A stretch of DNA of 64,000 nucleotides from sequence record PV682947.1. One strand, written 5' to 3'. The stretch is from Escherichia phage WPEC4. Positions 614-63,511 of the stretch are shown piece after piece. The notes under the pieces were generated by a model. That model did no database searches, had not been told where the DNA came from, and worked only from the letters and a program-made list of their open reading frames with translations. Each line of letters begins with the position of its first letter. Positions within the stretch are counted from its first letter, which is position 1. Made by a program: the position numbers and the translations under genes.

Positions 614-964
614 ATGCAAGAGAGTAAAAATGTTCCGTTAAGTAGTTTACGTCTAATGAAGTTTTACAAAGCTTGGCTTGCTGGTGAGGTAGAAGGTCAC
701 ACAACGAGTGGTTTGTGCATATGTCTGATTAAGTATGTAGAGGGAACATACCCTGATGAACTGTTACCTCGTCTACAACAAGAGATGAAATCCCAGTTTA
801 TTGGTGCAGGATTGGATTACAATTTCCCGTTTAATGAAGGCGGTTATGAGGAATACACCTTCGAACATAAAAAACATATTTGCCATAAAAACAAACATCG
901 TATACAATGGGTGCTAGATAGAATTCAGGATTATGAAGGAATTCCTTCCTCCTCAAATTATTAA
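614..964 (+). CDS. Member of 5-copy paralog family (about 110-130 aa); C-terminus runs into repeat unit at 941
   Basis: ATG with GAGAGGAG RBS; shares FY..YLAW..G.P, GLC.NL, LPFN, CHLNVDR.NWV-like motifs with 58166, 59444, 62426 and 63185 ORFs; last 8 codons and stop lie inside an inserted repeat unit. Confidence 0.55.
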   Translation: MQESKNVPLSSLRLMKFYKAWLAGEVEGHTTSGLCICLIKYVEGTYPDELLPRLQQEMKSQFIGAGLDYNFPFNEGGYEEYTFEHKKHICHKNKHRIQWVLDRIQDYEGIPSSSNY

Positions 965-1172
965 CGAAACCGCATGACTAAATCTTGGTTCAGATATAAC
1001 CTCTGCTACAGTCACATATTTTATGAATCTCCCCTAAATACTTTTCTAAGATTTTACGACCCTCGTCGATAAGGGCTTGTTCTGTAGTAATTTCCATTCC
1101 TTCCTCCTCAAATTATTAACGAAACCGCATGACTAAATCTTGGTTCAGATATAACCTCTGCTACAGTCACAT
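941..1172. repeat. Mini-array of three ~77-bp units (types M2, F, M2) of the same families as the 38.9-45.6 kb array
   Basis: Unit 941-1016 equals 1096-1172 equals the native 3' end of the gene at 1173-1248; unit about 1019-1094 equals the inverse of 45586-45660. Confidence 0.8.
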
Positions 1173-1183
1173 TTCCTTCCTCC

Positions 1184-1774
1184 TCAAATTATTAACGAAA
1201 CCGCATGACTAAATCTTGGTTCAGATATAACCTCTGCTACAGTCACATATGTATCGTGCAGCCAAAAAGATTCTACTCTACAAACACAAATACCGTTGAT
1301 AATGAAATCTACACAGGCTTTATTATTTTCGCACACTTGTTGACTATAAACAACCCCTAAAGAGTCATAAAGTGATCTCACTGTTGCTACCATTTCATCT
1401 GTTTCGTCTTCCTGTGAAACAAAGAAAACGAATACAGACAAGTTATTAGCGAAAGTATTGCTATTCTCTACTTCAACCGACTTACAAGGTAAAAAGGAGT
1501 AATATTTACCGTTAGGTATCAATTTCGCCTCAACCTGGTTAAGTATGCTTTGAGATGGTTTTGTTACATAAAAAAGATTTTCTGTTGGGTTTTCAACATT
1601 ACTCCTTACTATGCAACGAGTGGGGTTCGAAGGATCAAAAACATGATCGAAATCGACACACACAGGTAAGTTAACAACTTTAAACTTTTTGCTAAGAATG
1701 CTTACTGCTGTAAAAATCAAACCAGCATTTATTTTGCCAGTGAAAGTTGAACGCATAACTACTCCTCGGATCAT
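1184..1774 (-). CDS. hypothetical protein
   Basis: 196-aa ORF; its 3' terminal about 76 bp (1173-1248) is the source sequence of repeat unit M2. Confidence 0.5.
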   Translation of the reverse strand: MIRGVVMRSTFTGKINAGLIFTAVSILSKKFKVVNLPVCVDFDHVFDPSNPTRCIVRSNVENPTENLFYVTKPSQSILNQVEAKLIPNGKYYSFLPCKSVEVENSNTFANNLSVFVFFVSQEDETDEMVATVRSLYDSLGVVYSQQVCENNKACVDFIINGICVCRVESFWLHDTYVTVAEVISEPRFSHAVSLII

Positions 1775-1965
1775 TCTACCAAAGAGAATTCCGCCTCTTC
1801 CAGGTAGATTACAGACCTTGTTGCATGATATTTAACGCTCCAGAAATTACCTTCGCGCCGTAAAAGTATCTCATTCACATCAAGATTGCTTAGAAAAACC
1901 ATATAACTTAAAGCTTGTTGACGCGTTGAGAATTGTTTCTCTAAAAGTTCTTCTCCGCTCTGCAT
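1771..1965 (-). CDS. hypothetical protein
   Basis: 64-aa ORF, overlap-coupled with downstream gene. Confidence 0.4.
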   Translation of the reverse strand: MQSGEELLEKQFSTRQQALSYMVFLSNLDVNEILLRREGNFWSVKYHATRSVIYLEEAEFSLVE

Positions 1966-2010
1966 AATCCCTCCTTAAAATACTCCCTCCGAAAAGGGAG
2001 TATAAGTATA

Positions 2011-2214
2011 TCACGTAGTTGTTATGTTGTCTTCTTGGATACTAGAATCCACTTCTGCAAACATATCTTCTGCACTGTAATTATTTCCAGTCCAGCGTGA
2101 TAAAAGGATAGCACCAATCTCTTTTGCATGAGATTCGGACTCCGCATAAACGTTAGTCCCAGTGTCACCTTTTTTCTTTTCATGTGCATAAATGCAGTAA
2201 TAATTGTAAGCCAT
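2011..2214 (-). CDS. hypothetical protein
   Basis: 67-aa ORF in same-strand operon. Confidence 0.4.
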   Translation of the reverse strand: MAYNYYCIYAHEKKKGDTGTNVYAESESHAKEIGAILLSRWTGNNYSAEDMFAEVDSSIQEDNITTT

Positions 2215-2450
2215 TAATCTTCCCAGTCATTGCCCTCGGTAGAGTGAACTAAAGCTCGCACGATACCACCGTAATCTACTGCCTGATTTGCAGCATGTTC
2301 GGCATAAACTTCAATGGCTTTTTTGAAGAAAAGAGCAGTAGCTGCTTCAATATTATCCATTTCGCCATCTACGTCAGTAGAAAGTGAAAGGTTGAGGCTT
2401 TCATCTACTTCATCAAAATCAATAGCCACTGTCATAATTAGTTTACCCAT
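2214..2450 (-). CDS. hypothetical acidic protein
   Basis: 78-aa ORF, stop/start overlap with neighbours. Confidence 0.4.
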   Translation of the reverse strand: MGKLIMTVAIDFDEVDESLNLSLSTDVDGEMDNIEAATALFFKKAIEVYAEHAANQAVDYGGIVRALVHSTEGNDWED

Positions 2451-2462
2451 AGTTCACACTCC

Positions 2463-61496: not shown

Positions 61497-61506
61497 TCTT
61501 TTCTCC

Positions 61507-61854
61507 TTAGTTATGTAAACCCAAATGTGCTACAACTTCTCTACGATAAGATAACTGCATAGCGATTTTATAGCCAGGATGAAAACCATTTACATCAATG
61601 TCATCAAACCAAACCTCAAACGAACCGTGCTTAAGAGTCATTAAGTTGATATACCATTCGATAGTATAATGATCGTCAGCAATACCTTCGATGTAAAACT
61701 CTCGGCAACAATGAGATAAATCTTCACTTGTTTCACGTTTCCAGTCTTTGATAGCACCCTTCTCTTTAGCTTTATTCAGAATGTGGATCAGGTCTTCAAC
61801 TTGCATATTCTCTCCTTTAGTTCCAACTAATAATGATGTGTTTGATAATCCCAA
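61507..61854 (-). CDS. hypothetical protein
   Basis: 115-aa ORF. Confidence 0.5.
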   Translation of the reverse strand: MGLSNTSLLVGTKGENMQVEDLIHILNKAKEKGAIKDWKRETSEDLSHCCREFYIEGIADDHYTIEWYINLMTLKHGSFEVWFDDIDVNGFHPGYKIAMQLSYRREVVAHLGLHN

Positions 61855-62371
61855 AAATACTGTGCTCTGCGGTTGCCAATGTTACATCCAAACCTTTTGC
61901 ACGTAGCATTGTAGCTACAACATTTGCCCCTCTTTTCTGTTCACTTATCTGTTCATAAGAAGAAGGGCTATTGCACAAACCAAAACTGGAAGGTTCAAAG
62001 TATTTTTCAAACTTCCCTTGTTCCGCACAATCTTCAATCTCTAATAGAACGGCGTCTACCATTTCAGTAAAATGGGAATTTGCTTGCAGTGCTTTATTAC
62101 GCAGTTTATCACGTAAACTTCCCGTAGATTCTTCCTGCTCTTCTGTCTGTCCATCTTCACAGAAAGGATGAAGTTCAGCCCAGTCCCAAGCATCTCCTTC
62201 TAAAGCAAATGGAGTGTTGTAATTGAAGAAAGTGCAGCGCGGATATTCCCCGTTGAAAGAATCTTTCAGCAGAATATATTTCTTACCGTTTGCATGGAAG
62301 AGTTCTCCTTTGATAACCTTACCTACAAGGATATCACTGTTAGTGGAACGGGTGCAAATAAACTTTTTCAT
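61817..62371 (-). CDS. hypothetical protein
   Basis: 184-aa ORF. Confidence 0.5.
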   Translation of the reverse strand: MKKFICTRSTNSDILVGKVIKGELFHANGKKYILLKDSFNGEYPRCTFFNYNTPFALEGDAWDWAELHPFCEDGQTEEQEESTGSLRDKLRNKALQANSHFTEMVDAVLLEIEDCAEQGKFEKYFEPSSFGLCNSPSSYEQISEQKRGANVVATMLRAKGLDVTLATAEHSIFGIIKHIIISWN

Positions 62372-62425
62372 GATTTTCTCCTCTCTGTTTCGATGAGATG
62401 ATTATGACAAAGACAGATCCTTCTG

Positions 62426-62746
62426 TCAACCAATTATTTCTTCTGCTACACGTTCTTTTACCCAGTTCACACGATCCACATTCAAATGACAACGGCTTTT
62501 TTCCGCTTCTAAGGTGTACTTTCCAAAATTACTGTTGAAAGGCAACACCATAACCAAACCTTTGAGGTAGAACTGCTCATGCATTTCATCCAGTACAGGT
62601 TCGTATCGTTCGCTTTCTCCTATGTCGTAAAAATCATAGAGGTTCGTGCACAAACCTGTGCAACGGGTGAACGGTTCACCTTCAGGAGCACCAGCTTCCA
62701 ACCATGCCAAATACGTGCGGTAAAATGTTAATAGTTCTTCGCTCAT
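62426..62746 (-). CDS. paralog-family member (5-copy family)
   Basis: LTFYRTYLAWLEAGAPEGEPF, GLCTNL, LPFNSN, CHLNVDRVNWVKERV; ATG with AAGGAG RBS. Confidence 0.55.
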   Translation of the reverse strand: MSEELLTFYRTYLAWLEAGAPEGEPFTRCTGLCTNLYDFYDIGESERYEPVLDEMHEQFYLKGLVMVLPFNSNFGKYTLEAEKSRCHLNVDRVNWVKERVAEEIIG

Positions 62747-62955
62747 TTCCACTCTCCTTCGTGATAGTAAACCTCAAAAGAATAGTAAGTGAACATGCTC
62801 ATTGTAACACCTGCCATTTCTGGATCAAAGGGGGTGTTGTTATACATGTCAACTACTGCCTGACCCGCTGCTTTGGCATGTGCTGCTGAATCACAGGCAC
62901 AAACATCTTTCTCCCACAGAAACTTGCCATCATACTTAAGACGGACAATCCACAT
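62743..62955 (-). CDS. hypothetical protein
   Basis: 70-aa ORF. Confidence 0.45.
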   Translation of the reverse strand: MWIVRLKYDGKFLWEKDVCACDSAAHAKAAGQAVVDMYNNTPFDPEMAGVTMSMFTYYSFEVYYHEGEWK

Positions 62956-62957
62956 GC

Positions 62958-63185
62958 TTATTCCTCCATCTCAAACCATTCAGGGAACACTTTATGGAAG
63001 ACACGGGTTGTTTCCAAAAGGAATTCCAATTCTTTTTCCAGATCTGCGTTCCAATCGTGCACTTTAACATTGATTGCCAATGCACTTGCACGGCGACTTA
63101 ATTCTTGACAGATTGGATCACGCAGAACTATTGAGTCGTAAAACTGACAAACGGCCTCAAGTTCATACCAGTTATAATCCGACAT
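62958..63185 (-). CDS. hypothetical protein
   Basis: 75-aa ORF. Confidence 0.45.
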   Translation of the reverse strand: MSDYNWYELEAVCQFYDSIVLRDPICQELSRRASALAINVKVHDWNADLEKELEFLLETTRVFHKVFPEWFEMEE

Positions 63186-63511
63186 TATTCATCCTCCTCT
63201 GCAATACGATCTCTTACCCAATTAATCCTGTCCACGTTCAGGTGACATACCTCTGCATCTGATTCTAAGACATATGCATCGTAGTTCTCATTGAAAGGGA
63301 GTTCTTGACTCAACCCTTTGTAGTAAAACTGTGAGTGCATTTCGTCTGACAAGGTTGTTATAAGGAGATTGTAGCCATCTGCGTGCACATAATCGAACAA
63401 GTTGGCACACAAACCGCAATCTCGCCGAAAAGGTTTACCATCAGGAGCACCAACATCAATCCATGCTAGATAAATTTTATAAAACTCCATCAACCCTGCG
63501 CTTGTTTTCAT
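63185..63511 (-). CDS. paralog-family member (5-copy family)
   Basis: MEFYKIYLAWIDVGAPDGKPF, GLCANL, LPFNEN, CHLNVDRINWVRDRI. Confidence 0.55.
   Translation of the reverse strand: MKTSAGLMEFYKIYLAWIDVGAPDGKPFRRDCGLCANLFDYVHADGYNLLITTLSDEMHSQFYYKGLSQELPFNENYDAYVLESDAEVCHLNVDRINWVRDRIAEEDE

Follow-up and report, generated by a model that had tools for sequence, protein, structure and literature searches.

Five paralogous genes in the window and seven in a canonical genome

The window analysed here is a 64,000-nt stretch of the Escherichia phage WPEC4 record (PV682947.1). It contains five open reading frames (ORFs) that encode related small proteins, and a 'repeat array' in which pieces of the same genes recur. 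As a reference we took in full the genome of phage ABPW7 (OP562383.1, 148,647 bp), the closest relative that is free of the array. The first gene, at 614–964 on the plus strand, is the orthologue of the ABPW7 coding sequence (CDS) 380–724 and of gp245 in phage phAPEC8, with an E value of 9e-42 against the hidden Markov model (HMM). The other four lie on the minus strand. For two of them a shorter start is annotated in relatives: 58166–58504 (listed as an ORF to 58552; 112 amino acids (aa) from the annotated ATG; ABPW7 14025–14363; PHROG 2510 E value 6e-27) and 59444–59809 (listed to 59842; 121 aa; ABPW7 12720–13085; 2e-26). The gene at 62426–62752 encodes 108 aa from a GTG or 106 aa from an ATG at 62746 (ABPW7 9783–10103; 4e-31). 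The last, at 63185–63511, encodes 108 aa (ABPW7 9018–9344; 5e-31) and supplied the protein used for structure modelling. The 614 gene stands on the opposite strand to the other four because of contig orientation, as all seven members found in ABPW7 (below) share one strand.

Aligned with MAFFT, the five window proteins are 29–43% identical to the first sequence; 16 columns are invariant, and these fall within the FY..WL, GLC..L, F..GL....PF and R..WV motifs. Full-length pairwise identity ranged from 25% to 51%. The initial annotation had described five ORFs with a shared motif architecture, and this architecture is present in all five. Nor is the similarity confined to low-complexity segments, since BLASTP with SEG masking still aligned 100–112 residues for every pair of the five (E values of ~1e-4 to 5e-38). 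Beyond these members, the sole window ORFs that matched by BLASTP were fragments inside the repeat array. The family is real, and we consider this practically beyond doubt.

An HMM built from the five window proteins and run against ABPW7 recovered seven members, with starts at 380, 714, 5797, 9018, 9783, 12720 and 14025, within a ~18-kb block of 57 small plus-strand genes. The family is the largest paralog group of this early block (7/57 CDSs, 14% of the coding sequence), in which the other paralog groups amount to one triplet and two pairs. Alignments of the family had 14–16 invariant columns. Pairwise BLASTP between the 58166 protein and the off-window member at ABPW7 714 was not significant (E value of 2.1), and the match to the member at 5797 covered 76 aa (E value of 4e-4); both of these weak pairs are linked via the remaining family members. 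The proposal of an expanded paralog family is therefore borne out by the canonical genome, while the count of five applies to the window only.

Two of the seven ABPW7 genes, CDS 380–724 and CDS 714–1082, lie in tandem with an 11-nt overlap; in the annotation of phAPEC8, the type phage, they correspond to gp245/gp244. The second gene of the pair (CDS 714–1082, gp244 in phAPEC8) is a family member absent from the window; its protein begins MTNSIPLSSATLLRFYKAWIANYP, is the closest relative of the 614 protein (43–44% identity) and is conserved in ~70 Phapecoctavirus genomes. Family orthologues in general are 88–100% identical across Phapecoctavirus. We are highly confident that the true genome carries both the seven copies and the tandem pair.

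Block order and repeat array of the window

Window positions 57000–64000 match three Escherichia phages from hospital wastewater in Thailand with E. coli EC3.18 as host (WPEC1, WPEC2 and WPEC6) at 100% identity, and ~60 phAPEC8-like phages of the genus Phapecoctavirus, the group to which the window belongs, at 96–99.9%. The early region is arranged colinearly in more than 60 relatives. The window itself is not colinear with ABPW7, as canonical blocks are joined out of order: window 1–940 corresponds to ABPW7 148414..706, 1173–8018 to 26942–33787, 8019–38912 to 111119–142280 (with indels), and 45583–64000 to 26939..8529 in reverse. The joins fall at 940/941, 8018/8019, 38912–38926 and 45582/45583. 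The window is not colinear over its full length with WPEC1 or WPEC2 either. The whole WPEC1 record contains the same blocks with the same boundaries in another order and orientation, with ~15 breakpoints and 98 short pieces (modal lengths of 153–156 and 77–82 nt), and many 90–150-nt 'CDSs' are annotated within its junction pieces. The WPEC records are 155–161 kb long, and the relatives 148–152 kb.

The repeat array (38926–45582) consists of ~86 units tiled without gaps. Every unit maps to ~77 nt beside one of six ABPW7 positions (~708, ~26941, ~33790, ~57072, ~111117 and ~142306), and these six positions are also the ends of the large blocks. The array is composed of single units of 77–82 nt and of double units of 149–156 nt that span the canonical breakpoints. 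Among the copies of any one double unit the arms are identical, and variation is limited to a centre of 2–7 nt (for example at window 40560–40566, 43014–43022 and 41853–41860). Each centre comprises two or three sites that are mostly biallelic and mostly transitions, and the copies enumerate the allele combinations: 6/6 at 708 (plus one indel variant), 4/4 at 57072, 7/8 at 33790, 5/8 at 111117 and 3/4 at 26941. The corresponding variant clusters in ABPW7 lie at 707–709, 26940–26941, 33788–33791, 57066–57072 and 111115–111119. They sit in purine-rich tracts, at least three of them between a Shine–Dalgarno (SD) sequence and a start codon. Beyond this purine-rich, SD-adjacent context, no common motif (nick, restriction or protospacer adjacent motif site) was evident at the six breakpoints.

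The lengths of the units follow a simple rule. At 5/5 measurable loci the arm and the centre sum to 78 (75+3, 76+2, 74+4, 71+7 and 73+5); with d as the span of the variants, double units are 156−d nt long and their arms 78−d nt. In a de Bruijn graph of word length k = 77, the edge made of all (k+1)-mers that hold every variant of a cluster has a length of 2(k+1)−d, which is the observed 156−d, and a double unit can be read as such an edge. Single units (~77+d−1 nt) have the length expected for edges with one variant only. The multiplicity of words points the same way, falling from 13 copies at k = 74 to 4 at k = 77 and 2 at k ≥ 79. Exact repeats of at least 79 nt number 18, of which 16 are 79–80 nt long and two cross junctions between adjacent pieces. 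Our early expectation of strictly unique 78-mers did not hold exactly; the excess is accounted for by chance extension at junctions and by two junction-crossing inverted repeats. As with the bubble edges (unitigs) of a de Bruijn graph at k = 77, no (k+3)-mer is common to the edges here, junction effects apart. Such edges are normally separate short contigs, whereas here they have been concatenated into records labelled as complete genomes. A k of 77 is the largest default of SPAdes for 150-nt reads, and from this value alone we infer that the assembler was SPAdes.

On the basis of these sequence regularities, the array and the block order are almost certainly concatenated k = 77 graph edges from a polymorphic sample and not physical phage DNA. 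The sample polymorphism at a few clusters may reflect a mixed phage population, recombinants or systematic sequencing error. One observation weighs against this interpretation: the near-complete sets of allele combinations at each cluster have no explanation under the artefact model.

The alternative is that the array is real phage DNA, a mosaic of gene-end/gene-start modules (a recombination hotspot or a decoy array) that captured pieces of the paralogs. The array does occur in three or more GenBank deposits labelled as complete genomes, its units stand in both orientations and its junction bases vary. However, a real array would not account for an arm and centre that sum to k+1 = 78 at 5/5 loci, nor for the fact that units with as many as 13 copies give just two exact repeats above 80 nt. 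Each unit also abuts a contig end, and WPEC1 orders the same blocks differently. The breakpoints at 33790 and 142306 seem to lie inside canonical CDSs, and another truncates the 614 gene. Finally, ABPW7 mapped in full showed no array, and the array region was matched in relatives only as ~ten short scattered pieces. We regard this alternative as effectively refuted and assign it a negligible probability.

Two further observations concern the blocks outside the array. Window positions 21349–21895 and 30267–31799 had no megablast match to ABPW7; these stretches are probably strain differences (indels or replacements) inside otherwise colinear blocks. In addition, a 41-nt direct repeat with a GC hairpin (GCGGCA-ATGG-TGCCGC) occurs between small ORFs at 34102–34142, 35629–35669, 36581–36621 and 38292–38332. 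Because copies are also found in the canonical ABPW7 genome (138366 and 144885), this intergenic repeat is genuine, and it may serve its gene block as a regulatory signal or terminator.

The tandem-pair locus and the false end of the 614 gene

One of the six variant clusters, at ABPW7 ~708, sits at the junction of the tandem pair: it lies in codon 111 of the 614 gene and at the same time in the spacer between the SD sequence and the ATG of the tandem partner. The contig breaks at this cluster, which is why the tandem partner is outside the window and the ends of both genes are repeated in the 'array'. For the same reason the 614 gene is cut and carries a false C-terminus. Bases 614–940 of the ORF are genuine, and 941–964 are a fusion to an unrelated piece; the last eight codons (GIPSSSNY*) are read from ABPW7 26941–27019, where minus-strand genes have their 3' end and SD region. 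The C-terminus of the genuine protein is YEGEKNDK*. The last 75 nt of the contig (866–940, plus strand; ABPW7 632–706) are the true 3' end of the gene and form the left arm of the ~708 cluster. They are followed at 941–1172 by a mini-array of three graph edges from ABPW7 26864–27019 (a 79-nt single unit and a 154-nt double unit), which stands between two large contigs.

Several details of the initial annotation are explained by this arrangement. It had proposed that the 614 gene contributes its end (unit M5) to the array, and window 866–940 does recur there. It had also attributed a second unit (M8, encoding MTNNIPLSSATLLRFYKAWIANYP) to the start of a further family member outside the window, which we can now identify as ABPW7 CDS 714–1082. 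The junctions of M5 with inverted M8 had been read as derived from tandem paralogs, a reading that agrees with the two overlapping genes of canonical genomes; the array holds M5 joined to M8 in the canonical head-to-tail order in seven copies. Since both arms flank the one ~708 cluster, these M5–M8 junctions represent true genomic sequence in several allelic versions. The claim that the array 'samples' the family fails, as the array consists of graph edges and not of physical DNA.

The seven copies are double units of 153/154 nt from ABPW7 632–784. They are found at 40488–40640, 40639–40802, 41272–41427, 42818–42970, 44493–44645 and 44877–45031 on the minus strand and at 43421–43573 on the plus strand. 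Each runs from the end of the 614 gene through the SD spacer into the start of its tandem paralog (MTNNIPLSS...), and they differ in the centre only (GAC, AAAC, AAC, AAG, GAG, GAA and AAA). The locus also supplies two adjoining single units at 40799–40957, with the right arm at 40799–40877 (plus strand, start of the tandem paralog) followed by the inverted left arm at 40878–40957, and a further right-arm single unit at 44798–44874 (minus strand). In total the tandem-pair locus accounts for 17 of the ~86 array units, compared with an expected 17%, as 2 of the 12 unit types come from this locus. The array shows no preference for the family, which appears there only because one of the six variant clusters happens to be at the tandem-pair junction.

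It follows for users of these data that the GenBank records WPEC1, WPEC2 and WPEC6 and the source of the window appear to be concatenated assembly-graph edges. Any unusual feature taken from these records, whether a 77-nt mosaic, the order of the blocks, a fused gene or an additional very small CDS, would be spurious. The relation 'arm + centre = k+1' can serve as a quick test for similar artefacts in other records.

Family breadth, conservation and predicted structure

All five window proteins matched PHROG 2510, a cluster without annotated function (E values of 9.5e-26 to 3.8e-31 over approximately residues 1–110), and more weakly PHROGs 6418, 27059 and 2176, to none of which a function is assigned. 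We treat the window proteins as members of PHROG 2510, although only positions ~4–113 of its 219-position profile were matched. The family had been introduced as unknown. It is in fact already catalogued as PHROG 2510, identical proteins are deposited in GenBank as hypothetical proteins, and members have been noted as conserved hypotheticals in earlier genome papers. A scan of all seven paralogs gave no significant match in Pfam, NCBIfam or PADLOC: there was no NCBIfam or PADLOC hit at E ≤ 1, and the sole Pfam hits (E values of 0.014 and 0.05) were below curated cut-offs.

An exhaustive profile search, with representatives defined as clusters at 50% identity, returned 1,547 representatives at E ≤ 1e-3, of which 613 reached E ≤ 1e-10. 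Single-domain proteins of 100–125 aa make up the majority. Among the top 150 representatives, ~20 carry two copies of the domain, one carries three and one is fused to DUF551; this DUF551 fusion was the only one found in a Pfam scan of ten multi-domain relatives. With tblastn, 623 places in 245 phage records were matched, and the hosts included Escherichia, Klebsiella, Rhizobium, Achromobacter, Salmonella, Erwinia, Ralstonia, Pseudomonas and Delftia, among others. The named members, retrieved in two word-indexed searches, all came from phages or phage-sized contigs. We regard the single domain, ~105–120 aa long in the window paralogs, as specific to phages.

Residue conservation was estimated from 160 representatives, each a cluster at ≤50% identity, and is given in the numbering of the 63185 protein. 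C35 (160/160) and F73 are present in 100% of the sequences, G33, L34, P72, R95 and F62 in 99%, and F10 and Y11 in 98%. Conservation of W98, Q61 (93%), N92 (92%), E57 (89%), E83 and H90 (79%) ranges from 79% to 97%. The proteins are mostly acidic (median isoelectric point of 5.2), and no signal or membrane segment was apparent in them on inspection.

The predicted structure of the 63185 protein has five helices, with a mean predicted local distance difference test score (pLDDT) of 94.7 and a predicted template modelling score (pTM) of 0.87. According to this model, the domain would be a compact five-helix bundle with long aromatic-anchored loops. No relative of the predicted fold was found among solved structures. 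Likewise, neither fold nor sequence similarity was seen to solved anti-defence or host-takeover proteins (e.g., Ocr, ArdA, Acb2, Tad1/2 and Gad1, whose presence in the Protein Data Bank libraries we assume). A natural two-domain fusion was also modelled, and both domains were predicted confidently; the pTM of 0.67 for the whole offers nothing firm as evidence of dimerisation.

Relatives in other phages include Burkholderia phage JG068 gp5 (U3PB88), Delftia phage RG-2014 gp13 (A0A097PAI5), a protein of Rhizobium phage Palo (A0A7L8G4H9) and phi92 gp006. They belong to the same family by sequence and share the predicted fold (Foldseek template modelling scores of 0.80–0.89 at 28–34% identity), and they too are encoded in left-end or early regions. 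These phages differ from the phAPEC8-type in host and virion (podoviruses, N4-like), and each gave one or two tblastn matches, a lower bound, compared with seven copies in the phAPEC8-type genome.

A comparison with Pfam DUF6197 was less productive. DUF6197 proteins resemble the family in size, in their multi-copy habit and in the order of motifs (an N-terminal helix with W, a G-x-C helix, an IP-F-N-D loop and an H in the last helix), and on one 86-kb contig three tandem DUF6197 genes (231–1537) have a family member nearby. Nevertheless, no window protein hits the DUF6197 Pfam model, and hhalign, run with three DUF6197 sequences only, gave a probability of 0.1% (E value of 0.52). Homology to DUF6197 is not supported.

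Early-region context

In phAPEC8-like phages the family genes are found on the left-hand side of the map, within its block of small genes. More distant members occupy similar places in other genomes. On an N4-like contig, a member lies directly downstream of homologues of N4 gp1 and gp2 (3135–6321), with a Sequestin-domain gene nearby, and on a ~42-kb contig with a T7-type terminase, a member lies two genes downstream of an S-AdoMet lyase (5353–6309). S-AdoMet lyase is an early anti-restriction gene in T3. The member in Burkholderia phage JG068 is gp5 in the left-end class I region, and its similarity to phAPEC8_0044 was noted by the authors of that genome (PMC3765740). Delftia phage RG-2014 gp13 is listed likewise in its genome paper (PMC5735904). 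The 62426 protein is probably the orthologue of the 106-aa phAPEC8_0044 cited for JG068, judging from its length only. Early-region location is thus common to phAPEC8-like, N4-like and T7/phiKMV-like genomes, and from this location we consider early expression of the family likely.

Among the other early paralogs of the tandem triplet and the pairs are window 61817–62371 (minus strand) with ABPW7 3861–4160, ABPW7 2464–3833, and ABPW7 1344–1574 with 6507–6728. The first of these encodes a 184-aa protein directly downstream of the family member at 62426 and belongs to one of the early-region paralog pairs. A serine recombinase (60218–60895, minus strand), annotated as a resolvase or DNA invertase in relatives, lies midway through the early block, with family members on either side.

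Possible function

Our reading as a whole, its functional part included, carries moderate confidence: a real gene family of the early region and, separate from it, an assembly artefact. Because the genes sit consistently in early regions, their products would be made early in infection and would act in the host cytoplasm. There they may bind host (or phage) macromolecules stoichiometrically, as part of host takeover or counter-defence. A conserved core site combined with variable loops (approximately residues 20–32 and 43–50) could give each paralog a different partner. That three unrelated types of phage have the genes in their early regions makes a role that is accessory, directed at the host or anti-defence plausible. 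As a specific assignment, the role of host-directed binder or anti-defence protein is tentative: it is the most likely of the roles considered here, yet somewhat less probable than not. Three points need to be set against it. First, we found neither a homologue of known function nor a structural relative. Second, the strong conservation of C35, R95, Q61 and N92 fits an enzyme or small-molecule site equally well. Third, the orthologues are so nearly identical across Phapecoctavirus that they give no hint of rapid diversification in a current arms race.

The second of these points leads to the better of two alternatives, namely that the proteins are small enzymes or small-molecule/nucleotide binders that use C35, the residue at the N-terminal end of helix 2, along with R95, Q61, N92 and H90, with paralogs that differ in substrate. 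In a scaffold that does nothing but bind proteins, polar residues are not usually conserved as strongly as the invariant C35 and R95, Q61, N92, E57 and H90 are here. Even so, we judge this alternative improbable. Slighter still are the chances that the family regulates phage gene expression or DNA transactions (e.g., as transcription factors or anti-terminators of the early-to-middle switch) and does not target the host.

The host-directed interpretation can be taken one step further, at a slightly lower probability. The family may represent a new fold and a large early effector family that is absent from Pfam, in which the conserved Cys/Arg/Gln/Asn site engages a conserved bacterial target or signalling molecule and the seven copies form a panel against varied host defence or housekeeping targets. 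This possibility is less probable than not, and if it were true, the family would be a new class of counter-defence or host-takeover protein.

What remains apart from this is a family of early genes that is ordinary but large, whose fold is apparently unclassified and which should interest phage biologists modestly. As by-products, the analysis is most useful for showing that the WPEC deposits are misassembled and for the simple numerical test for the artefact. PHROG 2510 offers an opportunity like that of many other dark phage families, and nothing mechanistic sets it apart from them. Nonetheless, among the uncharacterised early-gene families of Proteobacteria phages it is one of the larger, and it provides 7 of 57 early genes in a genus used in therapy studies, and a functional assignment would annotate thousands of 'hypothetical proteins'.

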